Shown in pieces: positions 8,385 to 61,713 of a stretch of DNA of 64,000 bases. How positions within the stretch are numbered: the first letter of the stretch is position 1; every line of letters begins with the position of its first letter. Under the pieces are notes generated by a model. The model was not told where the DNA came from. It was given only the letters and a program-made list of their open reading frames with translations, and searched no databases. Location: positions 39,866,001-39,930,000 of the forward strand of contig NC_135808.1 of the NCBI RefSeq assembly GCF_964213995.1, given 5' to 3'. A program made the position numbers and the translations under genes. The stretch is from Mustelus asterias. Its lineage: Eukaryota.

Positions 8385-8574
8385 TTTGAAGTAGAATGAT
8401 AGTATAAACCTTACGCAATCTATTTTTTAACGACTGTGAACAATACCAATCTCCATGGGACCCGCCGGTCTCACCGGGGGTTTCTCTTCACAATAAATAA
8501 TGGGGTGTTTTCAGAATTATCTCTCTGAACAAAACGACGCGTGGCCTTAAAACAGAGACCAATCGGCGGGAAAA
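8385..8574 (+). promoter_or_regulatory. Putative promoter/5' UTR of the GPCR gene
   Basis: Lies directly upstream of the ATG and is colinear with 50358-50545. It includes CAATACCA, TCTCACC and an AT-rich CACAATAAATAA box about 80 bp before the ATG. Function is inferred only. Confidence 0.45.
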
Positions 8575-8695
8575 ATGCATGAAAGTTCGTCGTGTTCTAA
8601 AGAACCATCAGTTCCACTAGACGAGCGGGTGCTGCGGACACTGGAGAAGATCGTGGAAATATATTATCCGGTCCTCGCTGCAGTGGGTATTGCTT
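8575..8695 (+). CDS. GPR139/GPR142-like class A GPCR, exon 1
   Basis: AAAAATG start; MHESSSCSKEPSVPLDERVLRTLEKIVEIYYPVLAAVGIA plus 1 nt, then a GTAAGT donor. The phase-1 join to exon 2 is in frame (T+TC = Phe, then NLVAIVIL). Confidence 0.85.
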
Positions 8696-9370
8696 GTAAG
8701 TCTGTATAGAATTATTAAGTCTATGTACTGTAATTCCATTACTGTTTTGTGACGTAAAATCCTCTTTTTTTTCTCCCGGTTTTACCTAGTAATGCTCTAT
8801 GTGCAGTTTTAATCACATAACAAGTTTTCCTCTCTTACTGTTATTTAGATTTACTTCCCCAAATGCACCACCAGCAACCTATGATTAAAGAAGTCTTTGT
8901 GCTGCTTTACGACTCTCTCCTCGCTTCACTAGTTTTCTTTGTAAATGACAATGTACAGGTATTACGTTTATTACATGTGCTTATACACTGAACATTTCTC
9001 TCAGGACAGAAAGAACTGTTGATTGATTCAGTAAGGCACTTCAGGTTGCTGCTGAATGCGGATAGTTGGCAAATGTTGAGAGTCAAACAGAACCAAGTTC
9101 GTGCCAAATATACCAAAAGACATGCAATATTGCTTTCAGTCTGCCAATTCCTCTTGCCAATTCCATCAGTATCTCTGTGGGATTAGTAAAGGTCCTTGTC
9201 TTTTTATTCAACTTTTTTGAGTTAAAATTAAATGGCTGCATTTTTGGTTAACTCGGAAATGTTACATCGCAGGTAATATTATATTGTTTAATGCCAGTCG
9301 GTTTTGACTACCCGTGTTTGAGATATTGGTGAAAGAAGTCTCACGTTAGAGGAGCAGTGTAAGTTGTTGC

Positions 9371-9725
9371 ACTCTTTAACCTGGAATAGCTGTATAGAGA
9401 TCGGGAGCAGGAAACTGTGCTGATTCTTCTCTCTAACCCAGGATAACTGTAGAGAGATCAAGAGCAAGAAACAATGCTGATTTTTTCCTCTAATCCAGGA
9501 TAATTGTATAGAGACATCAGGAGCAGGAAGCTGTGCTGGTCTCTCTTTCTGACCCAAGATAACCGCAGAGAGGGCAGGAGCGTGAAGCGTTGCTGAATCA
9601 TCTCTCTAACCCCGGATAGCTGTACAGAGAGTAGGAGCAGGAAGCTGCGCTGATGCCTCTCTCAAAAACAGGATAACTGTATTGAGATCAGGAACACAAA
9701 CCCCTGAATACTCATCTCTCAGGAA
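9371..9725 (+). repeat. Intronic minisatellite, about 6 units of ~58 bp
   Basis: Consensus CTCTCTAACCCAGGATAACTGTATAGAGATCAGGAGCAGGAAGCTGTGCTGATT. Confidence 0.9.
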
Positions 9726-10125
9726 GATACATCACAAATGCATTTCTCAACTTTTTAATTAACGACCACAGAGTTATCCTTCTTCTCTCTGTGCCATTTT
9801 ACTTACTCTTTCAGAAATCGTCCATTTTACTGATATCTCCCAACGTTGAAAACTATGTTTCCTTGTTTACGATCAATTACTGATCATTTCTCACATGAAT
9901 TACTTTTATTTCATGCTTTAATTCTCCACTTATATTGTGTAACTAATTGCTGATTATTTTGCAGTAAAAGTGGTCTGGAACAGAAAGAGATGTCACATGG
10001 ATAATAATTAGATGCATCAATGAATTCAGTCACAAAATTCCACAATACATCCAGAACTCCATCAAACTGCAGATTTTGCTCCCCGATTCCTGTATAATTA
10101 TATTGTTTATTCCCCGTTCATGCAG

Positions 10126-11036
10126 TCAACTTAGTGGCGATTGTGATCCTGTCTCGGGGCAAGTGCGGACTTTCGAAATGTGTCAATCACTACCTGATGG
10201 CCATGGCAGCGTCTGATCTACCGGTTGTTATCTTCGATCTGATATTGAGACACATTACTGCTCTTCATTATTTTATGCGTTCCTTTTTTTATTCCATTCC
10301 TGTGTGTAATATCCACGCCGTCATACTTTACGCAGTCACAGATTGCTCAGTCTGGTTCACCGTCCTATTTACATTTGATCGATTTGTTGCCATTTGTTGC
10401 CAGAATCTGAAATCTAAATATTGCAATGAGAAAACGGCAAAAATAATTATCGGAGTAGTGACTGTGCTGAGCTGTCTCAAGAACGTTATTTGGTACTTCA
10501 TGTATACAAGTAAATATTCGCTTGTCAATGACCCCTGGTTTTGTTTCGTTGATAGCAGTATTCGTATGTCGCTGGTATGGAGAATAATTGAACTTGTCCA
10601 TTATCTTTTCACCCCCTGTATCCCATTTGTCCTTATTCTACTGTTCAATGTTTTAACTGTCAGGCACATCATAGCTGTCAATATGGTCCGCCAGAGACTC
10701 CGGGGCCAACGTAGTGGAGAGAATCAAAATGATCCAGAGGTGGAGAGCCGGAAAAAATCCATCATTATAATGTTTGCAGTATCCGGGAATTTCATATTGT
10801 TGTGGGCTGCTTTTCTGACCTATTCCGTCTCTTATACAATCAGATGGTTAAAAATTACTTCTGGATTTTTACATTACATAGTTAGAGAGATGGGATTTAT
10901 ACTTCAGCTTCTCAGCTGCTGCACCAACACTTGTATTTATGCAATGACACAATCTAAATTCAGAGTGCAGTTCAAGAATATAATGAAATACCCTTTGGTT
11001 CTATTTGTTAAATTTCTTGTTAAAATAGTTATTTAG
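10126..11036 (+). CDS. GPR139/GPR142-like class A GPCR, exon 2 (TM1 end to C-terminus; 343 aa in total)
   Basis: TGCAG acceptor and an open frame with 7TM hydrophobicity. Motifs: TM2 YLMAMAASDL, TM3 Cys...TFDRFVAIC, ECL2 PWFC, TM6 FILLW, TM7 CCTNTCIY, helix 8 FRVQFK. Confidence 0.92.
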
Positions 11037-11439
11037 CCACAAAGAAAATCCTTTGTGACCTGAGAATTCTGCATACTCAGAAATGAATCGCATCTGATGG
11101 TAATGTGTATAAATTAGAAAACTCCCAGAGACCTTCAGAGAGCGTGAGAAATGAGAAACGGAGTGGATACATATAAAGAATACGTCAACTTATCGTAAAA
11201 AGACCAACTGAAGTTTAGGTTGCCACTGTTACGAGCAGAGTCGGTTTTAAAGAGACTTAAATTCTTGAGAAATGTAGTGTGGAAGATTTGAAACATTTCA
11301 GTGAAGGCTTCCCCATCCACAGTTGAAGAGTCAAAGACTAAGTCGTGGAATCTAAAATTTTAGATGATGGAGAGTGATCATAGGGAGACAGACTACCATC
11401 TGACAAGTCGTTGGGAATGGAGGTTAGTAAGATCCATAG

Positions 11440-12100
11440 AGATGGTCAATCAGGATTCAAGGTGGGCAGAGGTTGGCGGTTCAGCATTGAAACTATTGGT
11501 GTTGATGCAGTGAGGTAGATGAGTCGTCGGCAATCTGTGATTGGAACAGAATCTCGAAAGCATGGCCGTCAAGTATATTTATGAGAATGTAGAGGAAGAA
11601 AAATCGATTAGAGAAAGGATTATCAATAAATGGGAAACAATGGGATGTTTTTCAGGAGATGGTAACAATGATGTTTCTGAAGACTACAGATTGTGATATC
11701 CGTTCAATAAGACGAGGGAAGAAGGGGACGTTTGGAATAGTTAGAAGCTGTGAAGGGAAGAGATGGGATGGGCAGGTAATTGATCTGAAGGAGAAAATGA
11801 ATATGTATTGAATATAAGAACACAGAAAAACGAATTGAACATTGAACGGTAGATGCATAGCAGTTGCATGAAACTGAGGTTGAATATCGAAGGCTGTTGC
11901 AAGACTCGGTGTTTAGATATTTGGGGAAGTGACTGTGGACGCGGAGGTTGACAGAGATTTTGTTGCTCCAGAAACTGCCAGAGGAAGTGAATTAAACCGA
12001 AAAACGCTGCTCAAGCAATCACGGGCCGATTGCCAAAAGGACAGGAAACTGATTGAGTGAATGGGCAGGGAAATTATTTTTAATCCCAGAGACACGCAGA
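11440..12100 (-). mobile_element. Very old L2-like LINE relic
   Basis: Purine-rich on the + strand, with a degenerate reverse 'ADD..Y' RT motif near 11515-11535. A paralogous relic lies at about 62160-62560. Confidence 0.4.
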
Positions 12101-12899
12101 TAAAATGTTTTTGTTCCTGACATTAGCAGAGCAACCAGAGTAATCAGATTCCAGAATTGAAATCAACTGCAACAACAACTCTTGTTTCTATCGAACCTTT
12201 TTGGATACATAAACATCACCAGTCGTTTCAACAGCGCATTGGAAAGAAAAACTAACAGTATGGCATCTCAAGGTATAAGGTAATTTCCAGGCCGATCGAC
12301 TCAAACTTGGTTAGATGAATGGGTTTTAAGGCATGTTACGAGGAAGATCTTGTGTTAGACAAACGGAATTTTTAGGGAGTGAATTCTGCGCTCAGAACAT
12401 TGAGAATTTGAAGCACGGCCACCAAGCCTCGAACAATTAAATAAAAACTGTTCAAGAGGACAGGATCAGATAATCCCAGATATCTATGAAAGTTGTAAGG
12501 ATGTGAGAGATTGCAGAGAGAAGGAGACGATGATTTGCCAAGGGAGGCACTATCGGTCAGGGAGTACGGCGTGATGGGCTAGGTAAAAGTGAGGATGGGG
12601 CAGCAGAACTTTGCATGATTCAAGTTTATGACACGCAGAATGTGAAATGCCAGTCAGGAATGTGTTCCCAGATGCAAACGTATCTACTGCTTGTAATGTA
12701 TCACCTACAGTCATCCTGATTTCAAATAAAATGATAAAAAACATCATGCTTTACCAGGTCTCCGAGTGAATCTTTTTGTGCTTATTCACCAACTAGATAC
12801 TTTTGAAGTGCTGTCGCTGCGGATGATTGGACTACTATTTTGTGTAAGGCAAGGTTGCACATTTTGATTCGAACTTTTGTTCTGAATGTTCAAAAATAA

Positions 12900-14295
12900 T
12901 TACCTTTTGGGTCCATTTATTGTACTCATATTTTGACAGTTGATAACTCTATTTTCACTTTCTTACCTTTTATTTTTTCGCATATTGTTCTCACATTCAT
13001 CTCACATTTCAATCTATGCATTTTCAATGAACTTTGGCACGTTTTTTTCTGATTCGTTGAAAACATTTTAATCTTTTTCGCTTTAAATATTTTGATGAGA
13101 AAAAGATTCATTTGCCTCCATTTCCAATTGAAATTTCGAACATTTTCTTTGGCAAGTTTAAAGGTTATCTTACTGATTATTGCATGGCTTCTTCCGATTT
13201 TTAGTCAACTGATTATCTTGATTTGGCACATTCCCCACACGGTAAGCGTATGTTTTTGTGGATACATCAAACAATTGCCGTCTGTTTTATGTTGATGTTT
13301 TCTTAAGCGATACTCATGCATGTCATTCTGCAGATCTCAATGACAATTTCATCAAATTTCAAATTTGGAATTATTCTCACATGTTTCACTTGATGTATTC
13401 TTTAGCTTTCGAGCAATTTTCAATGTTTTGAATTCGACACACATTCGACACACATTCAACGCACTCTTCACAATTTTCAAATATTTCTCACAATTTTGGG
13501 CAAGGTGCTCCTGTTTTAATTTTCTGTATTTCACAAAGTATTCTCAATTTTTTCAATATGAATGGATTTTACACATATTTCTGACAATCGAAAAGTTTTA
13601 ATTTCACTGGTTGTTCTCACGTGGTTCACTCTTTGAATATTGCCAATTCTCCTCATTATCATTTTTTTCAATTATTCTGACAGTTTTCTCCATCTTTCTG
13701 GCATATTCTATTTCAAATAATGTTTTCGCATTTTAATGTTTCGAAATATGCACACATTTTGCTGCTTTTTCACTTCAAATAACTCTTACATTTTGCCTTG
13801 CTGAGTTTAAAAACAGTTCTACCATCGGCATTTTCCCTTTTCTGGCATTTTAAAATCACTGAATATTCCACATGCATTCCCATTTACAGCGGGGTTAGTC
13901 TAACATTTGTCAGCATTTCCACCTTTGAGTTACTAAATCATTTTTCTCATTTTCTTTTCATTCTCAGAATTATCTTTGTATTTTCATGTTCACGCTCATT
14001 TTTGATCAACTTTTCAAACTTTAAAGGTCTTCAAATTTTGATATCATTTTTGGTCAATGAAATTTTCAAATATTTTGGACAGATTTTTTTCTCATTTCAA
14101 CCCATTGAAATTTGCTCACTGTTTCGCATTTGGAACTCTTTAAAGTCGGAAGCATTTCTCTTACTTTCACTGTGATTCTTTTGTCACCCTTTTCTTGTTT
14201 CTTTGACGCTTTGAATTTTTCACGTTGATTCCACGTTCCACTCCTCAAATTTCAACACATTTATCTTCTAACTGCTGTCTCTCTCTCAGCAGCCC
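12900..14295. repeat. Unclassified T-rich strand-biased repeat, copy 1
   Basis: Rich in TTTTCA/TTCTCA. It is colinear with 31700-33325 and both copies end CTGTCTCT(C/T)CTCAGCAG. Confidence 0.65.
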
Positions 14296-14384
14296 ATGAC
14301 TACTATTACAACGGTATCATCAAATTACGTCTGTCTATTTTCTATCTCCGTCTCTGCATCAACATCGATGTTTCAGCCGACGGC

Positions 14385-16186: not shown

Positions 16187-16510
16187 AATTGGCGAGGATT
16201 GCACATGCAAATCATTCCAAACAAATCTTTGTTGCATCACATGTCAATGACTGCATGTCTAATCAACTCTGAAATATTGCATTGCTAATCATGTGATCAG
16301 ACAGCTTGAAGACAGTCAAATTTAACTATTCGTTTTCCACTATGGTTAAAAAATTACACTTCAAATGAGGGTAGTAATTGCAGGAACAGTTTGCTAACGT
16401 TTTCCCAATATTTGACAAGATGTCATTAATGCTGATTATCTATCCATTGGTTAACTATTCTGATATTTCAAAATTCACTGTTCACACTCTAATCCTAAAA
16501 ACAATATCGC

Positions 16511-16845
16511 GCTCAGTAGCAGGAAGCTATGGTGATTCTTGTCGCTAACCTCAAATAACATAACAGAGATCAAGAACAGGAAATTGTGCAAAATCCTACC
16601 TCTAACCCACAATAACTATATAGAGATAAGGACCCTGTGCTGATTCCTCTCTCTAACCAAGGGCAATAGTATAAACGACATGAGCAGGAAACTGGGCTGA
16701 TTTCTCTCTCTAACCGAAGAGAACTGGGTTGATTTATCACTCTAACCGAAGATAACTGCATAGATTTAAGGAGCAGGCACCTGCGCTGATGCCTCTTGTT
16801 AACCCTGGATAACTGTGCCGAGACCAGAAGTAGGAATCCCTACTG
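16511..16845 (+). repeat. Paralogous ~58-bp intronic minisatellite (GPCR copy 2)
   Basis: Same CTCTAACC..GATAACT..GAGCAGGAA..GCTGAT units as 9371-9725. Confidence 0.85.
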
Positions 16846-17265
16846 TTTCCGTCCGTCATAAATGCACTTACTTAAAACTTTATGATGGACGGCCAGAACA
16901 TTTGCCTGGTGATTCTGGATATTATATTTCCTGTTTTCTATTTACCTCTTTTGCAAATATATCCTAAAGATTGAGATATTGCTTCATTATTTTTCAGTTG
17001 ATGATTGATTATTTTTTATATGAATTCCAATTCATTTATGTCATAGTTTGTTGCTGCCATTCATTTATGTTGTTGCTTAACTTATTGTTTAATATTGATT
17101 TGCAGTAAAATCAGTCTTGAACAGAAAGAGCTGTCAAATGGATATTAATTAGATTCATCAATGAATTGTGTCAAAATTTCCGCTTTTCATCCCATCATTC
17201 ATGAAACCATTGCGTTTGCTCCCAGGCTCCTGTACAATTGTCTTGTTTATTCCTCGATCATACAG

Positions 17266-18165
17266 TCAACTTAATGACGATTGTGATCCTGTCTCTTGGC
17301 AAGTACGAACACCTCAAATGTGCCACTCACCACTTGGTGGCCATAACAGCATCGAATCTCCTCTTTGTTATCATTGCCCTGATACTGAGACAATCCACGC
17401 TCTTCATTGTGTTGAATTTTATTTTTGATGTCCAATGGGCTGCGATATTCTCCTTTATGCAGTCACTGGCTGTTCTGTCTGATTCAACGTTATATTTGCC
17501 TTTGACTTACTTGTAGCCATTTGTTGCCGGAGGTTGAGGGCTAAACATTGCAACGAGAAAACAACAACTCCAGTGAAACGAATAGCGACTGTGTTGAAGT
17601 GTCTCAAGAACAATTCTGGTACTTTATATACACCAGCGAATATATTTACTCGCCAATGACCCCTGGATTTGTCATGTAATACCGAGTGTTTGTTATGCAC
17701 TGCTCTGGAGCGTAATTGAATGTGTTCATCTTGTTTCTAATCCCTGTATCCCATTTATCCTCATCTTACTGTTCAATGTTTTAACCATCGCTCACATGAT
17801 AGCTGCCAACATAGACTGCCAGAGACTCCAGGGCCAGTGGAGTGCAGACAATCAAAATGATCCAGAAATGAATAACTGTAAAAAAAATCCATCATTGTAA
17901 TGTTTGCTGTATCGAGGAATTTTAAGTTATTATGGGCTGTTTTACCGCATAGTTTGTCTGTTACCAAATGTGATGGCTGGGGTACCAGTCTATAAGACTA
18001 TAAGATTCCATTGTTACAGAAATTGGGTTTATACTTAAGCTTCCAAGTAACTGCACCAATACTTGTAATTATGCAATGACGCAAACTAAATTCAGAGTGG
18101 AGTTAAAGGAGATTATGAAATACCCTTTAGTTGTATTTTTAAGGTTAAAGCAGGTCTTCAGCAAA
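17266..18165 (+). pseudogene. GPR139-like GPCR pseudogene (copy 2, exon 2 only)
   Basis: TACAG acceptor, NLMTIVILSLGK..., through MTQTKFRVELKEIMKYP. TGA at 17480 plus several frameshifts. No exon 1 was found upstream. Confidence 0.92.
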
Positions 18166-18564
18166 AACAAAAATGCCTTCCTTTGTGACATACTCATTGT
18201 AAACTATATTCAAACAGTAACATTATCAAATATTCGTGTCTTTAAATTAGAAAGCGCCCAAATGCATTTAGAGAGAGTGACAAACAAATAAATAGTTGAT
18301 ACTTGAATATAATTGATCAAATGAACGTAAAAATTATAACTCAATTTTTGGTTGAGAGTATTGCGCGTGGATTTGGAATATGTTTGATTCAAAATGGCTT
18401 CAAAATCTTGGGAAGGAAGCTGGAAAGGTGAACTTGAAGGTTGGCAAAGCAGCAGTAATAGGCATTCGGCACATAGAGCCTGTCAGCATTCAATATGACC
18501 ATGACTGATCCTCTATCAGTATTTCACCATAAAGGAATGGATGCTAACTCACTATGTGCTGTAC

Positions 18565-22085: not shown

Positions 22086-23429
22086 GACAGAGTATTCAGA
22101 ATTATTCAGTAGCCGGATAAATTAGGCATATGAAAGGAAATAACGTGGTGGAAATAACGTTGTGGGTGTAGGACAAAGACCACTGTTGGATGTAGAAGAA
22201 GTCGGTTGAAACACATGTTATATTCTACCATCTGGATGTAACCTCGACTCAATAATTATTGGATCACTATTTGATGATTGCATTGTTTATGATATGGTTG
22301 CTCTGGAATCATTCATCTGTTTGGCCAATTTTCATGTGGTGGACAAACTACAATAGATGTTATCAGATCAACCATCTGTTCTACGTTTCTCTCGATGTTT
22401 ATTTTTCTTCATTGAAATCATAATCAGTCGGAAATAATGATGCTGAGATGATCCAATGTCTCTCATTTTGTGATATTGCCCAATTTTTCATTTTATTTCC
22501 AATGAAAGAAACACGGCCACGTTATCTACAGTTTGCACCATTCCTCATTGTTGATCTAACGCATGGTCATCTTAGGTTACCTCGTGGAGCGGATTATATG
22601 CCCCAGGTGAAACTTGAGCCTTTCCCTCCACCACCTATCCCCATCCCCACCACCAGAATTAGCTTTCGAAAATTAATATTGTGAGTAAGTAAGAATGCTG
22701 CAGTTATAATTACAGATTTATGTTACATGAGAAAGGAAAATATTATTTTATTGATTGTGCATTCTCTTTGCTCCACACTGTTGGCCTAGAGATCTATTGG
22801 AAGAAACACACCTCATAATATGTGATAATCCTCAAATGAGGCAATGCTATGATTTGCACAAGTCAGTCGATGATTTTGTGTGCAATTTACATAATCACTC
22901 AACCATTTCCAGAGTAGGCCAGATGAAATTAAATTATTTACTGTGAGCAACTTGCTCACAGTTTTGCAATATCACGTTGATTTGCTCATTTGTGAAATTG
23001 CTGCCTAAATAGATTTAGCAAGATAATATGAAATAATAAGAAAGACTGCCTTGTGAAAACATAGAAATCTGTATCTGTCAGTATATGCAGACGTGTAATC
23101 AGTCGATTCTAGACCTTTCATTCACACTGCTGTAACCCGTGTGCTTATTGACTTGAATTCATGAATAGCTAATTGAGCTTTTTATGTCCCAAAAATGTTG
23201 TCGCTCTCAGGGGCCTTCACGTTTGCCTCGTGGTTTCACGGCTCTGTTACTTCTTGTGTTTTCCCATTAATTGTAGGAAAGGTACACTCTATCACTGTGT
23301 TATCTATAGCTTGGTGCGAAAAACCTAGGAAATGTCCTTCCATTCTATGGCAGCTATTTACTGTCCCGATAACATAAACTGGACTCGTTGTGAAACTGGT
23401 TACCAATTCCCTACGAGCTGGTCTGGCAG

Positions 23430-23790
23430 TGCTCAATGTTTTGACCACCAGACATATAGTGTGGGGCAACAGACTGAAGAGGACACTCCAATAAAGTAAC
23501 AATACTGAGGATCACAATGATTTACCGATGGAGAACAGAAGGAAATCGATCTGATGCATATCTCTAATTGATTTCTATTGTTATCGATGTTCTGTGCACA
23601 ATTTGGCGGCATTCAATTTCAGTGGAGAGTTTATAATGGCCCGCTCGCCACCATGGAGCACAATGGATGCACGCTTCAATGTTTGCATTCATGCACAGAC
23701 ACATTTACCTGTGCAGTGGCTCAGGCTGAATTCAGAGAGGAATTGAAGAATGTCATTAAATATCCAATGACTCTAATGACGTTAGGTTAC
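23430..23790 (+). pseudogene. Highly decayed GPR139-like GPCR relic (copy 3, TM5 to helix 8)
   Basis: LNVLTTRHIVWGNRLKRTLQ*SNNTEDHNDLPMENRRKSI and LQCLHSCTDTFTCAVAQAEFREELKNVIKYP align to the intact protein. Confidence 0.8.
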
Positions 23791-32325: not shown

Positions 32326-32330
32326 ACAGA

Positions 32331-37689: not shown

Positions 37690-40600
37690 ATGATGAGCTG
37701 GATTCTGAGCCTCAGATATGGTGACACATCGGGGAGGGGGAGAGTTACCTGGACGCCGTGTTTCAGGAGGCAGTCACACCCCTTAGACTAAATAACTTGA
37801 ATTCAGCCAGTCGTCAGGGACAGAAGGGTATGGCTGCGAGTGAGGCAGGTAGCGGAACCCAGGAGATAGGGTTAGAGGAGCTCGGCCTTTGTCCTTGTCC
37901 AACTGGTTCGAGATTCTTGCTTCCTCTGAGGACGGAAACGGTGTCTGTAGGGAGGATGTGCCAACTGACAACAGCACCGTGCAGGGAGCCATTCAAGTGG
38001 GGGAGAGAAAAGAAATGTAGTTGTAATTGGGGATAGTATAGTCAGGGGCATAGACGATATTCTTTGTGACTAGGTTCAAGACTCCTGAATGTTGTGTTGC
38101 CTACCTGGTGCTTGGTTTCAGGATATCTCATCTGGGCCGCAGAGGAACTTAAAGTGTGAGGGTAAAGTTCCACTTTTTGTGGTCCACGTTCGTACCAATG
38201 ACACAGATAAAACAAGGGCCGAGTTTCTGCAGAGAGAGTATGAACAGCTAGGAGCTAAGTTAAAAAGCAGAATCAAAAAGGTAATAATCTCTGGGTTACT
38301 ACCAGAGCCACTAACTAATTGGCACATGGTGAATAAGATTAAGCAGGTAAATGCGTGGCTTAAAGATTGGTGTGGGAGAAATGGGTTTGAATTCAAGAGA
38401 CATTGGCATCAGTTCTGGTGAAGAAGAGAGCTGTTCAATGGGACGGTCTTCATCTGAATCATGCTGGGACCAGAGTCCTAGCAAATTGCATAACGAGGGC
38501 TTTAAACTGAATAGCGGGCAGGATACACCTGCAGGGCAAATGAGAAAACCCAAATTGAAGGAGGAGATAAGAATGCAGGTTAGCGGTGTGGTAGATGGTT
38601 ACAAGACAATAAAATAGAGGAACAGAATGGGTGAATGTTTTATGCACAAAGGAATTATAGGAGAGTGGGAAAATTACCAGCAGAATAAATTGAGAAGCTT
38701 TGTATCTAAATGCACGAAGCATCTGGAACAAAGTTAATGAGTTAACGGCGCAAATAGAAACAGAAGGGTATGATTTGGTGGTGATTACTGAGACACGGTG
38801 ACAAGGAGACCAGGTTTGGGGATTGAATATCCAAGGGTATTCAGCATTTCTGGAAGATAGACTTCAAGGAAAAGGAGATGGTGTAGCTTTGTTGGTGAAG
38901 AAAGGGATCAGTGCTGTAATGAGAAATGACGTAAGTATGGGAGATCAAGATATGGAATCAGTCTGGGTAGAAATAAGAAACAGTAAAGGAAAGAAATACT
39001 TGGTAGGAGTAATCTATAGGTCCCCAAGCAATAGTTCCACAGTGAGGCACAATATAAACCAGGAAATGCTGGGGGCTTGCAAGAAAAATATGGGAATAAT
39101 TATGGATGATTTTAATATGCACAAAGATTGGAAGAATCAAATTTGCAAGGGTAGCCTGGAGGCAGAGTTCATTGAATGTATTAGAAATTGTTTCTTGTAT
39201 CAGTATGTTGTGGAGCCAACCAGGGAGCAGGCTATTCTGAATTTGGCATTGTGTAATAAGAAGGGATTAACTGACGGCATCATAGTTAAGAATCCTTTTG
39301 GGAGCAGTGACCATATTACGATATGATTCAAAATGCAGTTTGGGGGTGAGAAAGTGGAGTCCCACACTAGCGTTCTGGAATTAAGCATAGGGAATTACAT
39401 AGGCATGAGGACAGTTTGGCCCGAGTGAGCAGGAGGGCTAAAAGGTAGGACAGCAGTTGAGCAGCGACAGTTGTTAAAGAAGTTACTCAAGTCCTCACAA
39501 CTTAAATATATTCCAGTGAAGAAACGAGATGGGGGGGGGGGGGGTGCGGTGCAGCATCCATGGCGAACCAAGGACGTCAAGGACAATATAAGGCCAAATC
39601 TAAGCTATGCCATATTGCAAAGGTCAGTGGCAGGCTGGAAGATTGGTAAACTTTCAAACATAAACAAAGGGATACCAAAAATTAATAAAAATAGCTGACA
39701 TAAATTACAAATAAAACTAACGCAAAAATATGAAGACGTAATGCAAAAGATTTTATAGATATATAAAAGGGAGGAGAATCACTAGGATGAATGTTGGTCC
39801 CTTGGAAAATGAAACCGGAGAGCTAGAAGTGGGGAACACTGAAATAGCAGAGATGCTAAATCAATACTTTGCCTTAGTTTTCATGGTGGAGGACATTACG
39901 ACCATTCATCCAAGAATGTGCAACTCAGAGGTAATAGAAAGGGTAGAACTTAGAACAATCAACATCGTTAGGGAAAAAGGTACTCAGCAATCTATTGGGA
40001 TTAAGGCAGATATGTTCCCCCATGCCCGATGGGGTATTAAAGAAAGTGGCAGCGGAGGTAGTGGACCCATTGTTAGAATATTCCAGAATTCCCTGGGCAC
40101 ATGAAAGGTTCCAATAGATTGGAACAATGGTAATATAACACCCTTATTTAAAAAGTGGGGGAAGCAAAATGAGGGAAATTACAGACCGGTTAGTTTAACA
40201 TCTGTTGTTGGGAAAGCTTTAGAATCAATTATCAAGGAAGGAACATCAGGAAAGTCAAAACGCTATCCATCAGACTCAGCATGGTGTTATGAAAGGGAAA
40301 TTAAGTTTCAATAAATTGTTAGAGTTCTTCGAGAATGTAACAAGCAAAATAGATAATGGGAATCCTGTAGATGTAGTATATCTGGACCTCCAGAAAGTGT
40401 TTGATAAGGTGCCGCACAAACAGTTAATTCACAAAGTTAGATCACATGAGATTAGGGGTAATTTATTAGCTTGGATGGTGACTGGCTGATGGACAGAAGG
40501 CAGAGAATCAGGATAAATGATTTTTTAAAGAAGTAACTAGTGGGGTGCCACAGGGTTCAGTCCTTGGGCCACAGCTATTTACAATCTATATTAATGACTT

Positions 40601-49985: not shown

Positions 49986-50545
49986 AACAAATCGCCTCAC
50001 TCGTGTTGTGATTTTCTGATTCTATGATATCCTCCCTCTCCAGCTTTGTAACATTATCCTTAATCAGTATCCCACCTCCTCCTTTACCTCTTTCCTTCTA
50101 TTCCCTGTGCCATCTTCTTCCTGGTAATTTACTCATCTGCCCCGATCTCCTCAGGCCTTTTACTCTGCTCATTGGATGCAGAGGTGGAAGTAACTCTGTT
50201 ACTCCCACATCCAATGAGCGCCTATAACGAACTGTACGTAAGAGAATTGAGTGAAATCAGGGAGTAATTCTACGCAGAGAATGGCAGATATTGAGACCTA
50301 ACTTCCACAGTGATTGACGTTAAGATCACTTTTAATGTTATATGTGAGATTGAGAGATTTTGGAGTATACAGTACACTTTACAGAATCTGTCTCTTTGCT
50401 GATTGTATACAATACCAGTCTCCCTGGGAACAACTCATCTCACCAAGGGGTTTCTGTGCACAATAAATAAGGGATTGCTTTTAATATTATTTCGCCAAAC
50501 AAGACGACGGTTGGCCTGAAACATGGAGACCAAAACGCAGGAAAA

Positions 50546-50632
50546 ATGTATGAGAGTTGATCATTTTCTCAAAAACCGACAAGTCTTTTGAATAGTCAGA
50601 TACTGCATGCATTCGAGAAGATTCAGAAAGTA
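50546..50632 (+). pseudogene. GPR139-like copy 4, exon 1 relic
   Basis: GGAAAAATG context; MYES*SFSQKPTSLLNSQILHAFEKIQKV is colinear with exon 1 at 8575. It is truncated by a SINE-like fragment and the donor site is lost. Confidence 0.8.
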
Positions 50633-53600
50633 GGGGAGTAGAATCCGTGGCATCTGCAGTGGTGGGATTAGAACCCGGTCCCCAGAACATATCTCTAAGT
50701 CACCGTCTCCCGTGAATATGATTGCTAACCCAATGATTAAACTGATTTCTCAATTATTTTTTCTGTTGATCAGTCCGAAAACGCGAAGTGATATCCTCTG
50801 GAAATCCAAAACTTTGGAACATGCGAACGAGGTGGCTCCCCAGAGCCTTCATTTTTTATTGATAAGATTTTGTCAGCTTGTTTTAATCAAATTATTGTGA
50901 ATGGCTAATTAGTTGATATTTTGCAAATAATGGGAGAAGGGGCAACTCCATTTGTTCTGGCGAATTATCAATCTTCTTTTAAGCTTTGGAAAAAGTCCTC
51001 ATTAAACATGTCTCATCTTATTGCCTGTACAAGAGTCTCATGAATTAATAAAGACTCAACAGTCGAGGACAACCTGTATTCCTCATAGGGAGGCAGTCCC
51101 ATGCTATGCCATTCCTTTCCTAGCTGTTACAACACGTCAATTCTCTCAGAGGGATGGCTAATGGCAAAATAGAAAAATGAAATAATCTATTGCTAAGTAA
51201 CCAATGATTATTCTTTACTTTTCCCTCAATTACCAGTTTGAGCAGTTGAAAACAACAACAACAGCAATATCAACTCTGAGGGCCATAATGATAACGAGAG
51301 TCAAGCATACTGGGAATTTTGGTCAAGTAAAAATTAAACACGGATGCAGGTCAGAAAGGCTGCAGTGAGTTGTGACCTGTCCTGGGAGATGTGAGCTGAT
51401 GCTTCTTGTTTGGTGCAAATAAGGGTAGTATTTTGGACTATGCTATCCTTTCCGACGCTGACGTTTCCAATTGCATTCCATATTTGGCGAGGCTACGTGA
51501 TGTCCGTGCAGTTTGGCAGTTGTTTACATGTAACAACCTTGGTTGTAATGGAACGTTGCGATCAGTTGCGAGTGCCATCATTGGTTGAGTGCCAGAGAAC
51601 CTTCTAGAAGAATGTCAGATGTTTAGAATAAAGAGATGTGTTTATGTCTTTGCCTTCAGTGGAAATTGGAGACTCACCTTCACAAACTGTACCTTGAAGA
51701 ATATCTTCAGAGAAAACCACGAGGAAATATTTGCATCCGAGAGCAGACTAGTCAGTTCACTGAAACAGGGTAGCATTTGTTTTGAATAAAAAAATAGTCA
51801 TTGTTAGAGTTAGATGTTTAAAGTTAAATGGGTTAAAGTGTTGTAACTGATCTGAGATTTTTGAAGCATGGGTATGTAAAGTATTGAATAAAGAGAAACA
51901 TTACAGGGTCAGGGAGGTCTCTGATCGCGTGCAAGGCATTCTGAAGTGGGAGGGTGATCAGCCAGGTGTCATGGTACACATTGGTACCAATGACGTAGGA
52001 AGGGAGAGTGATGAGGTCCTGAAGAGTGAGTATAGAGAGCTTGGTAGGAAGTTAAAGAGCAAGACCACGAGGGTAGTAATCTCAGGATTGCTACCTGTGC
52101 CACGTGCCAGTGAGGGTAAGAGTAGAATGCTCAGGCAGCTGAACACGTGGCTGAGGAACTGGTGTAGGGGGCAGGGTTTCCGATTTCTAGATCACTGGGA
52201 CCTCTTTTGGGGCAGCTGGGACCTGTACAAGAGAGACGGGTTACACCTGAACTGCAAGGGGGCCAACATACTTGCAGGGAGTTTTGCTCGTGTTATTGGG
52301 GAGGGTTTAAACTAGACTTGCAGGGGGATGGAACCAGAGTGCCAGAGCAGATAGTGGAGCGGGAGTGAAAATAAACGATGTTAATAGTTCATGCAAAATC
52401 ACAAATAGAAGGGTTGTGTGTGGTGGTAATAATCTTCTGAGGTGTATCTATTTCAATGCCAGGAGTATTGTGGGGAAGGCAGACGAGCTGAGGGCGTGGA
52501 TTGACGCATGGAACTATGACATTACAGCCATTAGTGAAACTTGGCTGCAGGAGGGGCAGGACTGGCAGCTCAATGTCCCAGGATTCCGATGTTTCAGACT
52601 TGATTGAGGCAGAGGGATAAAGGGTGGGGGGGGGGGGGCGGTGGCATTGCTTGTCAGGGAAAATGTTACAGCAGTGCTCAGGCAGGACAGATTAGAGGGC
52701 TTGTCTACCGAGGCCATATCGGTCGAGCTGAGAAACAGCAAAGGTATGACCACATTAATGGGGTTGTATTATAGACCACCCAACAGTCAGTGAGAATTGG
52801 AGGAGCAAATCTGCAGAGAGATAGCAGACAACTGCAGGAAACATAAAGTTGTGATAGTAGGGGATTTTAATTTTCCACATATAGATTGGGACTCCCATAC
52901 TGTTCAAGGTCTAGACGGGTTAGAGTTTGTAAAATGTGTTCAGGAAATTTTTCTGAATCAACATATAGAGGTACCAACGAGAGAGGATGCAGTATTAGAT
53001 CTCCTATGAGGAAACGAGTTAGGACAAGTGACGGAAGTGTGTGTCGGGGAACACTTTGGTTCCAGTGATCATACCGCCATTAGTTTCAACTTGATCATGG
53101 ATAAAGATAGATCTGGTCCTCGGGTTGAGGTTCTAAACTGGAAAAAGGCCAAATTTGAAGAAATGAGAAATGATCTAAAAAGCGTGGATTGGGACAGGCT
53201 GTTCTCTTGCAAGGATGTGATTGGTAAGTGGGAGGCCTTCAAAGGAGAAATTTTGAGAGTGCAGAGTTTGTATGTTCCTGTCAGGATGAAAGGCAAAGTG
53301 AATAAGAATAAGGAGCCTTGGTTCTCGAGGGAGATTGGATCTCTGATCAAGAAGAAGAGAGAGATGTATGACATGTATAGCCAACAGGGAGCAAATAAGA
53401 TGCATGAGGAATATAAAAAGTGCAGGTAACTACTTAAGAAATCAGGTGGGCTAAAAGAAGACATAGAACATAGAACAGTACAGCACAGAATAGGCCCTTC
53501 GGCCCACGATGTTGTGCCTAGCTTTATCTGAAACCACGATCAAGCTATCCTACTCCCTATCATCCTGGTGTGCTCCATGTGCCTATCCAATAACCGCTTA

Positions 53601-54993: not shown

Positions 54994-57703
54994 AGAACAT
55001 AGAACATAGAACATTACAGCGCAGAACAGGCCCTTCGGCCCACGATGTTGCACCGACCAGTTAAAAAAAAAAACTGTGACCCTCCAACCTAAACCAATTT
55101 CTTTTCGTCCATGAACCTATCTACGGATCTCTTAAACGCCCCCAAACTAGGCGCATTTACTACTGATGCTGGCAGGGCATTCCAATCCCTCACCACCCTC
55201 TGGGTAAAGAACCTACCCCTGACATCGGTTCTATAACTACCCCCCCTCAATTTAAAGCCATGCCCCCTCGTGCTGGATTTCTCCATCAGAGGAAAAAGGC
55301 TATCACTATCCACCCTATCTAAACCTCTAATCATCTTATATGTTACAATAAGATCCCCTCTTAGCCGCCGCCTTTCCAGCGAAAACAATCCCAAATCCCT
55401 CAGCCTCTCCTCATAGGATCTCCCCTCCATACCAGGCAACATCCTGGTAAACCTCCTCTGCACCCTCTCCAAAGCCTCCACATCCTTCCTGTAATGTGGG
55501 GACCAGAACTGCACACAGTACTCCAAGTGCGGCCGCACCAGAGTTGTGTACAGTTGCAACATAACGCTACGACTCCTAAATTCAATCCCCCTACCAATAA
55601 ACGCCAAGACACCATATGCCTTCTTAACAACCTTATCTACTTGATTCCCAACTTTCAGGGATCTATGCACACATACACCTAGATCCCTCTGCTCCTCCAC
55701 ACTATTCAAAGTCCTCTCGTTAGCCCTATACTCAACACATCTGTTATTCCTACCAAAGTGAATTACCTCACACTTCTCCGCATTAAACTCCATCCGCCAC
55801 CTCTCGGCCCAACTTTGCAACCTGTCTAAGTCTTCCTGCAAACTACGACACCCTTCCTCACTGTCTACCACACCACCGACTTTGGTGTCATCAGCAAATT
55901 TGCTAATCCACCCAACTATACCCTCATCCAGATCATTAATAAATATTACAAACAGCAGTGGCCCCAAAACAGATCCCTGAGGTACACCACTTGTAACCGC
56001 ACTCCATGATGAATATTTACTATCAACCACCACCCTCTGTTTCCTATCCGCTAGCCAATTCCTGATCCAATTTCCTAGATCACCCCCAATCCCATACATC
56101 TGCATTTTCTGCAGAAGCCTACCATGGTGAACCTTATCAAACGCCTTACTAAAATCCATATATACCACGTCCACTGCCTTGCCCCCATCCACCTCCTTGG
56201 TCACTTTCTCAAAAAACTCAATAAGGTTAGTAAGGCACGACCTACCTGCCACAAAACCATGCTGACTATCACCTATCAATTCATTACTCTCCAAATAACT
56301 ATAAATCCTATCCCTTATAATTTTTTCCAACATCTTGCCGACAACAGAAGTGAGACTCACCGGTCTATAATTCCCGGGGAAGTCTCTGTTCCCCTTCTTA
56401 AACAATGGGACAACATTCGCTAACCTCCAATCTTCTGGTACTATACCAGAGGCCAACGACGACCTGAAGATCAGAGCCAGAGGCTCTGCAATCACTTCTC
56501 TTGCCTCCCAGAGAATCCTTGGATAAATCCCATCCGGACCAGGGGATTTATCTATTTTCAGACCCTCCAGAATATCCTGCACATCCTCCTTATCAACTGT
56601 AATACTGTCTATTCTACTCCCTTGCAACCCAGAGTCCTCCTCAGCTATATTCATGTCCCCTTGCGTGAACACCGAAGAGAAATATTGGTTCAATGCTTCA
56701 CCAATCTCCTCCGGTTCCACACATAACTTCCCTCTGCCATCTATAACTGGCCCTAAACTTGCCCTAACCAACCTTCTGTTCTTGACATACCTATAGAACG
56801 CCTTAGGATTCTCTTTAACCCTATCCGCCAAAGTCTTCTCATGTCCCCTTTTAGCCCTTCTAAGCTCGCTCTTCAACTCCCTCTTAGCCAATCTAAAGCT
56901 TTCTAGTGCACTACCCGAGTGCTCACGTCTCATCCGAACATAAGCCTCCTTTTTCTTTTTAACCAACAAAGAAACTTTTTTGGTGCACCACGGTTCCCTA
57001 GCCCTACCAATTCCTCCTTGCCTGACAGGGACATACCTATCACAGACTCGCAGTAGCTGCTCCTTGAAAAAACTCCACATGTCGGACGTTCCCAGTCCCT
57101 GTAATCTCCTAGTCCAACCTATGTTTCCTAATTCTCTCCTAATAGCCTCATAATTACCCTTCCCCCAGCTAAAACCACTGGCCCGAGGTTCATGCCTATC
57201 CCTTTCCATCACTAAGGTGAACGTAACCGAATTGTGGTCACTATCACCAAAATGCACACCAACTTCCAAGTCTAGCACCTGGTCTGGCTCATTTCCCAGC
57301 ACCAGATCCAATATAGCCTCACCTCTAGTTGGCCTGTCTACATACTGAGTCAAAAAACCTTCCTGCACGCTTTGAACAAAAACTGACCCCTCCAGCGAGC
57401 TAGAGCTATAACAATTCCAGTCAATATTAGTCAAGTTAAAATCCCCCATAACAATTGCCCTATTACTTTCACTCCTAAGCAGGATTGACTCCGCAATCCT
57501 TTCCTCAACCTCTCTAGAACTTTTAGGAGGTCTATAAAAGACTCCCAACAGGGTGACCTCTCCTCTCCTATTTCTAATCTCCGCCCATACTACCTCAACA
57601 GATAAGTCCTCATCAAACCTCCTCTCTGACACTGTGATACAATCTCTGACCAATAATGCTACCCCTCCCCCTCTTCTACCTCCTTCCCTACTTCGACTAA
57701 AAC
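54994..57703 (-). mobile_element. CR1 'C' nested in B, youngest copy
   Basis: Flanked by ATTT (54990-54993 and 57704-57707); (CATAGAA)n tail. Confidence 0.95.
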
Positions 57704-57710
57704 ATTTCAT
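55089..57710 (-). CDS. CR1 ORF2 (partial APE endonuclease plus reverse transcriptase), uninterrupted 873 codons, 5'-truncated
   Basis: [35 protein letters not shown]; no stops or frameshifts. Confidence 0.9.
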   Translation of the reverse strand: MKCFSRSREGGRRGGGVALLVRDCITVSERRFDEDLSVEVVWAEIRNRRGEVTLLGVFYRPPKSSREVEERIAESILLRSESNRAIVMGDFNLTNIDWNCYSSSSLEGSVFVQSVQEGFLTQYVDRPTRGEAILDLVLGNEPDQVLDLEVGVHFGDSDHNSVTFTLVMERDRHEPRASGFSWGKGNYEAIRRELGNIGWTRRLQGLGTSDMWSFFKEQLLRVCDRYVPVRQGGIGRAREPWCTKKVSLLVKKKKEAYVRMRREHSGSALESFRLAKRELKSELRRAKRGHEKTLADRVKENPKAFYRYVKNRRLVRASLGPVIDGRGKLCVEPEEIGEALNQYFSSVFTQGDMNIAEEDSGLQGSRIDSITVDKEDVQDILEGLKIDKSPGPDGIYPRILWEAREVIAEPLALIFRSSLASGIVPEDWRLANVVPLFKKGNRDFPGNYRPVSLTSVVGKMLEKIIRDRIYSYLESNELIGDSQHGFVAGRSCLTNLIEFFEKVTKEVDGGKAVDVVYMDFSKAFDKVHHGRLLQKMQMYGIGGDLGNWIRNWLADRKQRVVVDSKYSSWSAVTSGVPQGSVLGPLLFVIFINDLDEGIVGWISKFADDTKVGGVVDSEEGCRSLQEDLDRLQSWAERWRMEFNAEKCEVIHFGRNNRCVEYRANERTLNSVEEQRDLGVCVHRSLKVGNQVDKVVKKAYGVLAFIGRGIEFRSRSVMLQLYTTLVRPHLEYCVQFWSPHYRKDVEALERVQRRFTRMLPGMEGRSYEERLRDLGLFSLERRRLRGDLIVTYKMIRGLDRVDSDSLFPLMEKSSTRGHGFKLRGGSYRTDVRGRFFTQRVVRDWNALPASVVNAPSLGAFKRSVDRFMDEKKLV

Positions 57711-58732
57711 CAGGCCCAGGGGACTTATCGACCTTCAGTTTATTCAAAACTGTCAGTACATCCTCCCTCCAAACAACTATTTCCTCCCGCCTATTAGCCT
57801 GTAAAACCTTCTCTTCCTCAAAAACATGGCCCCTCTCCTTGGTGAACACTGAAGAAAAGTATTCATTCATCACCTCGCCTCTCTCTACTGACTCCATACA
57901 CAAGTTCCCACTACTGTCCTTGACCGGCCCTTGACCAACGTGAGATTGCTTTGGCAGACGAGGTGAAGGATAATCCTAAGAGCTTCTACAGGTATATTAA
58001 GAGCAAAAGGATAGTAAGGGATAAAATTGGTCCTCTTGAAGATCAGAGTGTTGGCTATGTATGGAACCAAAAGAAATGGGGAAGATATTAAATGGGTTTT
58101 TTGCATCCGTATTTACTAAGGAAACTGGCATGGAGTCTATGGAAATAAGGCAAACAAGTAGGGAGGTCATGGAACCTATACAGATTAAAAGGAAGGAGGT
58201 GCTTGCTGCCTTGAGGCAAATCAGAGTAGATAAATCCCCAGGACTGGATAGGGTATTCCCTCGGACCTTGAAGGAGACTAGTGTTGAAATTGCAGGGGCC
58301 CTGGCAGATATATTTAAAATGTCGGTATCCACAGGTGGGGTGCCGGATGATTGGAGGATAGCTCATGTTGTTCCATTGTTTAAAAAAGGCTCAAAAGGTA
58401 ATGCGGGAAATTATAGGCCGGTACGTTTGATGTCAGTAGTAGGTAAATTACTGGAAGGACTACTAAGAGATAGGATCTACAAATATTTGGGGAGACAGGG
58501 ACTCATTAGGGAAAGTCAACATGGCTTTGTGCGTGGTAGGTCATGTTTAACCAATCTATTAGAGTTTTTCGAGGAGGTTACCAGGAAAGTGGATGAAGGG
58601 AAGGCAGTAGATGTTGTCTCCATGGACTTCAGTAAGACCTTTGACAACGTCCCGCATGGGAGGTTAGTTAGGAAGGTTCAGTCGCTAGGTATAATGGAGA
58701 GGTTGTAAATTGGATTAGACATTGGCTCAATG

Positions 58733-58796
58733 TGGCTTTTGCTACCAAATAAACCTGTTGGACTTTAACCTGCTGTTGTTAAACTTCTTACTACTT
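58733..58796 (+). mobile_element. 64-bp insertion, Penelope-like terminal-repeat fragment
   Basis: TCAATG TSD (58727-58732 and 58797-58802) and the sequence CCAAATAAACCTGTTGGACTTTAACCTG. The family assignment is from recall. Confidence 0.7.
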
Positions 58797-60214
58797 TCAA
58801 TGGAAGAAACCAGAGAGTGGTACTGGAGGATTGCTTCTCTGAGTGGAGGCCTGTGACTAGTGGTGTGGCACAAGGATCAGTGCTGGGTCCATTGTTGTTT
58901 GTCATCTATATCAATTATCTGGATGATAATGTGGTAAATTGGATCAGCAAATTTCCTGATGATACAAAGATTGGAGGTGTAGTGGACAGTGAGGAAGGTT
59001 TGCAAAGCTTGCGGAGGGATTTGGACCAGCTAGGAAAATGGGCTGAAAATGGCAGATGGAGTTTAATGCAGACAAGTTTGAGGCATTGCACTTTGGAAGG
59101 ACAAACCAAGGTAGAACATACAAGGCAAATGGTAGGACACTGAAGACTGCAGTAGAACAGAGGGATCTGGGAATACAGATACATAATCCCCTAAAAGTGG
59201 CGTCACAGGTAGATAGGGTCGTAAAGAGTGCTTTTGGTACATTGGCCTTTATAAATCAAAGTATTGAGTATAAGAGTTGGAATGTTATGGTGAGCTTGTA
59301 TAAGACATTGGTGAGGCCGAATTTAGAGTATTGTATGCAGTTTAGGTCACCTAATTACAGGAAGGATATTAATAAGGTTGAAAGAGTGCAGAGAAGGTTT
59401 ACAAGGATGTTGCCGGGACTTGAGAAACTGAGTTACAGAGAAAGGTTGAATAGGTTAGGACTTTATTCCCTGGAGCGTAGAAGAATGAGGGGAGATTTGA
59501 TAGAGGTGTATGAAATGATGATGGGTATAGATAGAGCGAATGCAAGCACGCTTTTCCCACTGAGGCGAGGGGAGAAAAAAACTACAGGAGATGGGTTAAG
59601 GGTGAAGGGGATCAAGTTTAAAGGGAATATTAGGGAGGGGCTTCTTCACACAGAGAGTGGTGGGAGTGTGGAATGAGCTGCCAGATGAAGTGGTGAATAG
59701 TTAAGAAAACCTTGGACAGGTACATGGATGAGAGGGGTGTGGAGGGATATGGTCCAGGTGCAGGTCAGTGGGACTGGGCAGAAAAATGGTTCGGCACAGC
59801 CAAGAAGGGCCAAAAGGCCTGTTTCTGTGCTGTAATGTTCTATGGTTCTCTGGTTCTATTCCATGTAAATGTATCTGAGTCACCTTCTGTCCTTTGGTTT
59901 CTGACATGCACAGGGAACGTACCTGGGACAAGGTTTACGTTTATAGATGGTAACACCAGAGTAACTGAAACATCTTCTCATGAAATTAAGAGTTCCTGAT
60001 CAGTGACAGCTTTGTGACAGTATTTTGAGTGGTTAACAAAATCTAAATGCCTCCTTATCACAGGATTAACAGAAAATTGCGTTGTTAACGTTCTCAACTT
60101 AATACAAAGACAATAATAGGAAATTGACCTGATAATGGCCAGTTTTAAAATCTAGTGCCAATTTTAAATTAGATGTGTCCCCCCTCTCTCTATCTCATCG
60201 AGTACAATGATGTC

Positions 60215-60415
60215 GAGACCAAAAGCAGGAATCTGTGCTGACACCTCTGTCCAACACAGAGTAACGGTGTACAGATGAGGAGCAGAAAGCCTTGGCTGAT
60301 TCCTCTCTCCATCCCAGGATAGATATATAGAGATTAGGAGCAGGAACCTTTGCTGACTCCTTCCTCTAAACCAGGATAACTATACAGATAACTGTACTGA
60401 TTCTTCTCTCTCTCT
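60215..60415 (+). repeat. Paralogous ~58-bp intronic minisatellite (GPCR copy 4)
   Basis: About 4 units of GAGCAGGAA..GCTGA..CTCT..CCAGGATA. Confidence 0.8.
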
Positions 60416-60822
60416 TACTTAGGAAATTATAGCATCGCTGCATCATCTTATTCATTACATAACAAAGGCCAGAACTGATGCTGGGGCGTTTTGTCCATTC
60501 TTCCGTTTCATTACTCACTCCATATTCCAATAACTTCCCAAGAAAGGCAAAAAAATGCTGATCATTTATTATTCGTCGAATGAATTACTATTCCTCCATG
60601 AGTCGCAGTATGTTCCGTCATTTGTAATTAGTTTGTGGAATTCATTGCTGATTTTTTGTAGTAGAGTCTGTCTCGACTGTAAAGAGCTGTCACACTGATA
60701 GTAGTTAGAACCATCAATGAGATAAGTCACAAAATGTAATATTTGAACCTGTATTACGCCAAGCTGCTGCTTTTGCTCGTAGACTCCGGAATAATGTTCA
60801 CGTTTATTCTCCGTCCATACAA

Positions 60823-61713
60823 TCAACTTGATGGCAATTGTGATCCTGTCTCGAGGCAAGTGCAGACTCTGCAAATCTGTCAGTCACTACCTGCTGGCCA
60901 TGGTTAAGGCTGATCTACTGGTCGTTATACTTCATCTAATTCTGAGTGATGCACCTGTTGCTTATTGGGTGAAGCTATGTTTCTTTCCACTAATTAATAT
61001 CCACTGTGTCCTCATTTATGCGGTCGCAGACTGTTCGGTCTGATTCACTGTCAGGTTTATTTTTGGTCTATTTGTGGCCATTTCTTTGCGAGAAGCTGAA
61101 GGACAGATATTGCAAACAGAAAACAACAATTATACTGATAGGAATCGTATTGGGGTTAATTGTCTCAAGAAGATTTTGCATCTCTTTATGTATACAAATG
61201 AATACAGGCTCGTCCGTTGCCTCTGGCTTACTTTGTAAAACAAAGTGTTCGTTCTTCAATGCAGTGGAGAATAATTGAACTTCTTCATAATGTGTCCACT
61301 TCATTTGGCCAATTTGTCCTAATTTTACTGTTCAACATTTTAACCGTCAGACACATCATTGCAGGCAAACATTGTCAACCAGGGACTCTGAAGCCAGCGC
61401 AGTGGAGAGAATAAAAACCAAAGCTGGAAAATAATGTATCTTTGTTATGTTTACCATATCTGGGAATTTTATAGTATTATCGGCCGTATTTCTGAACTAC
61501 GCTGTCTGTTTCCAAATAACATGGTGGGGCTTCAGTTCTGTAAGACTACACTGCAAAATTGGATGAATAGAATGTTTGCTTTAGCTTCTAAGTTGCTGCA
61601 TCAACACCTGTATTTGTGCAATGACACAAATTAAATTCAGAGTGCAGTTGCTCAAGATGATGAAATACCCTTAGGTTATATCTGTTAAATTATTGGTCAA
61701 GATAGTTCTTTAG
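60823..61713 (+). pseudogene. GPR139-like GPCR pseudogene (copy 4, exon 2)
   Basis: NLMAIVILSRGKCRLCKSVSHYLLAM... through to TAG at 61711. The acceptor is mutated (TACAA), with TGA at 61041 and frameshifts. Confidence 0.93.

Follow-up and report, generated by a model that had tools for sequence, protein, structure and literature searches.

Which kind of receptor is kept where one intact gene stands among its own decayed copies, and what might it detect? This question is raised by a 64,000-nucleotide stretch of the genome of the shark Mustelus asterias (contig NC_135808.1, positions 39,866,001 to 39,930,000, forward strand; hereafter the window), which carries one intact two-exon gene for a G protein-coupled receptor (GPCR) at 8575-11036 and three decayed copies on the same (+) strand, as the first-pass annotation of this sequence had described. 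In that annotation the genes were regarded as GPR139/GPR142-like paralogues in a birth-and-death array. The analysis presented here indicates that the receptors belong to a clade of their own, which is neither GPR139 nor GPR142. With a probability of roughly 0.62, this family is a chemosensory receptor repertoire of cartilaginous fishes, likely olfactory and most likely used in microvillous neurons of the nose.

The intact gene encodes a class A receptor

The coding sequence (CDS) of 1,032 nt, which translates into 343 amino acids, is divided between exon 1 (8575..8695, + strand), running from the ATG start through the N-terminus and the first half of transmembrane segment 1 (TM1) to a phase 1 GT donor at 8696, and exon 2 (10126..11036, + strand), which follows an AG acceptor and covers the remainder of TM1 to the C-terminus, TAG stop included. 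The start of the span originally proposed for the cluster, 8385, lies a little upstream of the promoter module described below and does not coincide with the ATG (8575). The protein matches Pfam 7tm_1 (E 1.7e-19) and displays the class A hallmarks N42 (N1.50), D71 (D2.50), DRF 125-127 (DRY-like), C101/C180 (disulfide between TM3 and extracellular loop 2, ECL2), P207 (P5.50), W267 (W6.48) and N308/Y312 (NxxxY); among the hallmarks checked, P6.50 and P7.50 are absent. The gene product is a class A (rhodopsin) GPCR. An AlphaFold model of exon 2 (confidence score pLDDT 90) has seven helices and an ECL2 hairpin, and a fold search with this model returned peptide and chemokine receptors as nearest (GPR15, opioid, CCK, CCR); GPR139 was not singled out, ranking 20 among similar class A matches. 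By sequence, human GPR139 is the top match in the PDB, although a weak one (E 3e-8).

The family groups apart from GPR139 and GPR142

The shark's own GPR139 (contig C23) and GPR142 (contig C12) are the only two matches at E<=1e-22 in its genome, and their identities were confirmed. Two further single-copy orphans were found: orphA (contig C25), which is 60% identical to the coelacanth protein P0242 and has relatives in fish, amphibians and reptiles, and orphB (locus L093, C5:28.7 Mb), a long-branched gene with a 19-kb intron that lies beside the orphA clade. A phase-1 intron in TM1 is common to GPR139, GPR142, orphA, orphB and the family, and exon 2 starts at the same place in all of them. In a careful tree of 33 rows, the bootstrap of which had not fully settled, the family and a salamander orphan (P0236) form one clade (100/100), this clade joins orphA and orphB (95/94), and GPR139 and GPR142 stand apart (100/100). 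A quick tree of 91 rows, from which 15 of 106 rows had been left out as near-duplicates, agrees with it. A position of the family as sister to GPR139 plus GPR142 was not rejected by the approximately unbiased (AU) test (p 0.128).

Judged from the sequences, the family is a clade of its own, and conserved single-copy orphans (orphA/orphB) are probably its nearest kin, the best tree (95/94) being read beside the AU alternative. The assignment as GPR139/GPR142-like paralogues is not supported, given the separate single GPR139 and GPR142 genes. Because a salamander gene joins the family clade, the lineage would predate the jawed-vertebrate split and would then have expanded in cartilaginous fish. 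The orphA/P0242 clade may be GPR210A/B of PMC6504862.

No Pfam family of OR, TAAR, V1R, V2R or T2R receptors was matched at E<=0.1 by any of 11 members scanned, and the tree was built without these families; 7tm_1 was found in 11/11 and a weak nematode Srx match in 3. GPR139 proteins also carry Srw/Srx matches, and neighbours of the family in the Atlas include echinoderm and rotifer clusters. The invertebrate expansions of FMRFamide/MIP-type receptors (nematode Srw/Srx; echinoderm and rotifer clusters) are probably independent of the shark expansion. Nematode srw genes are chemoreceptors derived from peptide receptors.

The ligand pocket differs from that of GPR139 and varies within the family

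GPR139 and GPR142 are class A orphans activated by L-Trp and L-Phe (PDB 7VUG, 9M42). They resemble the family in their two-exon layout and in W6.48 and, often, H5.43, but they are single-copy here and GPR139 lacks the conserved Asp at 3.37 and the Cys-bearing ECL2 of the family. Residues important to GPR139 agonists are D84, E108, F109, H187, W241, R244 and N271 (PMC5430874; PMC12775434), and these correspond to R, L, Y, H, W, F and F in the window gene, so that 2 of 7 are identical and 1 is a conservative change (F109 to Y); the column of GPR139 W166 could not be reliably aligned with the family. In 6 GPR139 rows, D84, E108, R244 and N271 show little or no variation. Across 77 family rows, every checked pocket position varies except W6.48, and the Asp at 3.37 is kept in 69.

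These data bear on the possibility that the family represents expanded receptors of the GPR139/142 type for aromatic amino acids. The PDB match, the shared intron, the retained H187 and W241 with the F109 to Y change, and the sister position left standing by the AU test speak in its favour, whereas true single GPR139 and GPR142 genes lie elsewhere in the genome and D84, E108, R244 and N271, which matter to the agonists, are replaced by R, L, F and F in the window gene and vary in the family. The GPR139 ligand that had been carried over to these receptors is therefore not retained, and a Trp/Phe-sensing role is very improbable.

At 31 pocket positions, set by generic numbering, column entropy was 2.45 bits, as compared with 2.52 in the outer loops, 1.39 in the other transmembrane parts and 1.32 on the inner face (p 5e-8). 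A variable pocket over a conserved signalling face is a trait of chemoreceptors. In 27 disjoint pairs of close paralogues, nonsynonymous (dN) and synonymous (dS) divergence were 0.048 and 0.139 (dN/dS about 0.35), and by region dN/dS was 0.60 in the outer loops, 0.37 in the pocket, 0.31 in the other transmembrane parts and 0.26 on the inner face. Because of these regional values, the intact copies are regarded as being under purifying selection, with relaxed loops and with pockets that differ between subfamilies. Taken over the whole pocket region, the value stays below 1 and is in no excess over the other membrane positions, so that at this regional level positive selection is not shown.

Variable pockets also bear on whether these are receptors for endogenous neuropeptides or hormones, or receptors with a reproductive role (sperm, oviduct or pheromone-linked), that multiplied together with their ligands. 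The GPR139 lineage has been tied to invertebrate MIP, proctolin and FMRFamide receptors (PMC12208981), and the fold is of the peptide-receptor type, as this explanation would have it. Against it, such receptors are here single-copy with fixed pockets (GPR139, GPR142, orphA), and a thousand variable pockets would require a thousand ligands, which makes it quite improbable.

More than a thousand copies are present in the genome

In the shark's own 3.68-Gb genome, in which the window lies on contig C8, a protein search gave 5,960 first-look candidates, of which 130 were scored; all were 57-100% identical and were scattered over dozens of contigs on both strands. A 35-nt TM3 motif had 792 + 814 = 1,606 exact matches (reversed control, 0) and a TM7 motif had 347 (control, 0). 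Among the matches listed on C4-C11, a TM3 match adjoined a TM7 match in 32 of 43 cases, which scales to about 2,150 copies. Since the TM3 pattern is present in only 29 of 60 intact exons chosen by protein search, the figure of 1,606 is a minimum. The 36-45 Mb segment of C8 holds 48 or more copies with the motif. The birth-and-death array and the cartilaginous-fish expansion proposed at the outset were in this respect understated, and the small copy number that would have spoken against them was not encountered. A large clustered family with birth and death, spread over many scaffolds, is a further chemoreceptor trait.

In order to estimate how many copies are open, 60 of the first 100 listed TM3 matches were taken at even steps from five chromosome-size scaffolds. 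Exon 2 was open in 45 of these 60, and an exon 1 with a phase-1 donor was found within 8.9 kb in 34 of the 45. If this sample is typical, about 1,008-1,353 of the 1,606 copies are open, though a sample picked by motif is biased toward intact copies. Clustering of 103 distinct CDS at 99% left 93 clusters with a median identity of 60%. An assembly artefact was rejected, as the open sampled copies lie on chromosome-size scaffolds, dN/dS is about 0.35 and the CDS are distinct. Two sequencing runs considered as expression data were also rejected: they are genomic, with contigs that continue through the intron, and the contigs piling on the TM3 motif in them are not a copy number. One subfamily (L033, L036, L045-L047, L084-L090) has a longer exon 1 N-terminus with short repeats rich in WN-x-T; these are glycosylation-type sites and alter the outer face of its receptors.

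Could this abundance be due for the most part to neutral amplification driven by repeats, with only few functional genes and with counts inflated by assembly duplicates? DNA resembling ORF2 of long interspersed nuclear elements (LINEs) makes up 18,260 of the 64,000 bp of the window (29%), 3 of the 4 exon-2 copies in the 124 kb around the window are broken, and near-identical copies occur on small contigs. This explanation is already weakened by the openness of 45 of 60 sampled copies, by the dN/dS value, by the divergence among the 103 CDS, by a promoter module kept across subfamilies (see below) and by the 124 related proteins described next, and it is highly improbable.

A profile of 11 paralogues, searched against a set of 5.8 billion proteins, gave 7,995 scored proteins, 2,659 of them at E<=0.001. 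The best 120 of the 2,659 were all from sharks and nearly all labelled 'probable GPR139'. Among 50%-identity representatives, 124 proteins reached E<=1e-30. Twenty representatives that were looked up came from several shark orders, from rays (a stingray and a skate) and from a chimaera; lower-scoring ones were salamander, coelacanth, teleost, amphioxus and snail proteins, and the large expansion was seen only in cartilaginous fish. Members in sharks, rays and a chimaera agree with the earlier suggestion of a cartilaginous-fish expansion. The orphA/P0242 clade (L092 in this genome), single-copy in sharks, fish, amphibians and reptiles, also bears the RefSeq name 'probable GPR139'; some of its gene models are fused to TMEM183A, and no mammal or bird occurs among the 120 relatives listed. 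That name is a systematic mislabel, covering both the shark family and a separate single-copy orphan.

A promoter module is shared across subfamilies

Upstream of the intact gene, a proximal promoter module (8407..8499, + strand) scores 29.0 against a threshold of 9.9 and comprises an upstream block, degenerate O/E-like palindromes near 8450 and 8469 and a TATA-like AATAAATA at 8492. Its counterparts were studied in a set of 61 upstream regions, of which 39 remained after thinning at 80% protein identity. Over the 250 bp upstream of the start codon, enrichment relative to shuffled, distal and intronic controls was seen for O/E-like, homeodomain, forkhead-like and TATA motifs. With up to 1 mismatch allowed, the O/E consensus printed in PMC3247239 was present in 19 of the 39 proximal regions, as against 1 distal and 2 intronic regions out of 39 each; homeodomain TAATKR was present in 31 of 39 (shuffled mean 20.6) and TATA in 29 of 39 (shuffled mean 12.2). 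On leave-one-out analysis, a 36-bp module of palindrome plus TATA exceeded the 95th percentile of the controls in 34 of 39 regions, and it is retained across subfamilies below 80% protein identity. No enrichment was found for octamer, E-box or GTCAC motifs in the family promoters. The module was found in 0 of 3 upstream regions of orphA, orphB and GPR142, and by score it is absent from the divergent member L102. OrphA, which has the same intron as the family, is one gene conserved between shark and reptiles; its pocket is fixed, and the module is missing from it.

Enrichment of O/E, homeodomain and TATA motifs marks mouse OR promoters (PMC3247239), and O/E-like sites were found in all 39 V1R promoters of another study (PMC3247230). 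The module represents shared, conserved control of the family and does not by itself indicate an organ. A 7-mer of the family's promoter block, AGTGACT, also occurs upstream of 2 of 4 V2R-like types (L162-L165), which could be chance.

A chemosensory, probably olfactory, role best fits the family

To our knowledge, vertebrate GPCR families of such size are otherwise all chemoreceptor families. The OR, TAAR, V1R, V2R and T2R repertoires resemble the present family in size, clustering, pseudogenes, a variable pocket over a conserved inner face, and a compact TATA promoter with O/E-like and homeodomain enrichment. The family differs from them in lacking sequence membership of any, in its peptide-receptor lineage, in its intron-split coding sequence and in a promoter module absent upstream of the six V2R-like genes of the shark that were compared. 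Known shark repertoires comprise 6-13 OR, 3-5 TAAR, 2-4 V1R and 8-43 V2R genes, and catshark olfactory neurons are all TRPC2/Go-positive and microvillous, with v2r1 marking only part of them (PMC10116579).

If the receptors are chemosensory, subfamilies would each bind different waterborne ligands, and given the peptide-receptor-type fold these might be peptides or other polar molecules rather than the Trp/Phe of GPR139. By analogy with shark microvillous neurons, all members may use a single conserved G-protein pathway leading from Gq/Go to phospholipase C and TRPC2, and the shared promoter could let each sensory cell choose one or few genes. As to the organ, the nose is somewhat favoured over solitary cells of taste, skin or gill or somatosensory neurons. 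The bolder proposal, that this is the cartilaginous fishes' own main olfactory family of 1,000 to 2,000 genes, derived from a peptide-receptor lineage beside GPR139, is tentative.

Several observations weigh against a chemosensory, olfactory role. In no region does dN/dS exceed 1, and among close paralogues the pocket does not evolve more quickly than other membrane positions. Most motif matches lie on high-numbered contigs, some with identical scores, and duplicate haplotype scaffolds may inflate the copy counts. In the window gene's own promoter, no sequence comes within 1 mismatch of the published O/E consensus; a 4-bp spacer suits the most frequent palindrome just as well as the 2-bp spacer of O/E sites, and the promoter counts are not independent because promoters share descent. 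Nor is the action of Ebf and forkhead factors confined to the nose. The module is missing from six V2R-like upstream regions of the same shark (scores <=6.5, threshold 9.9); a distal O/E-like match occurred in 1 of these 6, the regions having been placed by exon 1 rather than by start sites. It is likewise absent from three other class C genes. Finally, the 50 most specific genes of a catshark brain-plus-olfactory library include no GPCR (PMC11979771), an absence that applies to V2Rs too.

The lack of the module at V2R-like genes would also suit innate immune sensors of microbial or damage peptides, comparable to the formyl-peptide receptors and MRGPRs of leukocytes and mast cells. The nearest solved structures are peptide- and chemokine-receptor-like, the outer loops evolve fastest, and Ebf sites drive B-cell genes as well. 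An arms race would, however, be expected to give dN/dS values above 1, which were not seen, the promoters combine homeodomain, O/E-like and TATA enrichment, and we know of no immune GPCR family of this size; immune sensing is unlikely, and the chemosensory reading is preferred.

Decayed copies and mobile elements surround the intact gene

The decayed copies were located by tblastn and a family nhmmer model, and their damage was counted against the nearest intact paralogue. Because E-values for the window copies range from 1e-38 to 1e-160, these are real and not chance matches. Pseudogene 1 (about 17266-18150, + strand) is a whole exon 2 with 8 frameshifts and 5 stops, 78% identical in nucleotides to its nearest intact paralogue, and the search found no exon 1 for it. 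Pseudogene 2 (23406-23778, + strand) consists of the 3' half only, from TM5 to helix 8, with 11 frameshifts and 4 stops (62%), and derives from a more distant subfamily than the window gene. Pseudogene 3 (about 60823-61713, + strand) is a whole exon 2 with 8 frameshifts and 6 stops (80%). A promoter module with a broken exon 1 at 50251..50662 (+ strand; nhmmer E 7e-28) most likely belongs to pseudogene 3, whose intron would therefore be about 10 kb long and consist of LINE ORF2-like sequence over 6.7 kb. The broken copies resemble siblings from other parts of the cluster more closely than they do the intact gene of the window. The same-strand arrangement holds within the window and is local only, with copies on both strands in the surrounding cluster.

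A 57-bp tandem repeat in the intron of the intact gene (9372..9693, + strand) recurs near 16513-16836 and 60193-60411; its 22 locus matches all belong to the window's own subfamily and lie on C8 only, making it a subfamily marker. An open LINE ORF2 of 881 amino acids (55092-57734, - strand) encodes an endonuclease and a reverse transcriptase domain. ORF1-like frames for a GDSL esterase lie at 38089-38418 and 51851-52312, a feature typical of CR1/L2 elements. Two inverted copies of a GC-rich element, 70% identical and flanked by common short repeats, lie at about 2314-3926 and 5734-7390; one has a weak Myb/SANT match (E 0.046) and resembles Harbinger accessory genes. The open reading frames at 1.8-7.3 kb were rejected as part of the receptor finding, being mobile-element-like.

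Significance of the family

No published description of the family was found in the literature searched, which left most subscription papers outside, and to that extent its standing as a functionally uncharacterised repertoire was borne out. GPR139 is not mentioned in the main text of PMC11979771, and it gave no match in the supplements of PMC8455134 (24 files) and PMC13188829 (8 files). According to published surveys, the olfactory receptors of cartilaginous fishes number just a few dozen (PMC10116579), and GPCRs in general have been described as relatively scarce in these animals (PMC8455134). The second of these statements is contradicted by a class A family under purifying selection that has roughly a thousand open copies or more, whatever the function of that family. 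If expressed in the nose, it would resolve the mismatch between the large olfactory organs of sharks and their tiny known repertoire; if it is indeed their main olfactory family, the shark nose would have a repertoire of rodent size, a fifth independent olfactory family of vertebrates that has been filed under the wrong database name.

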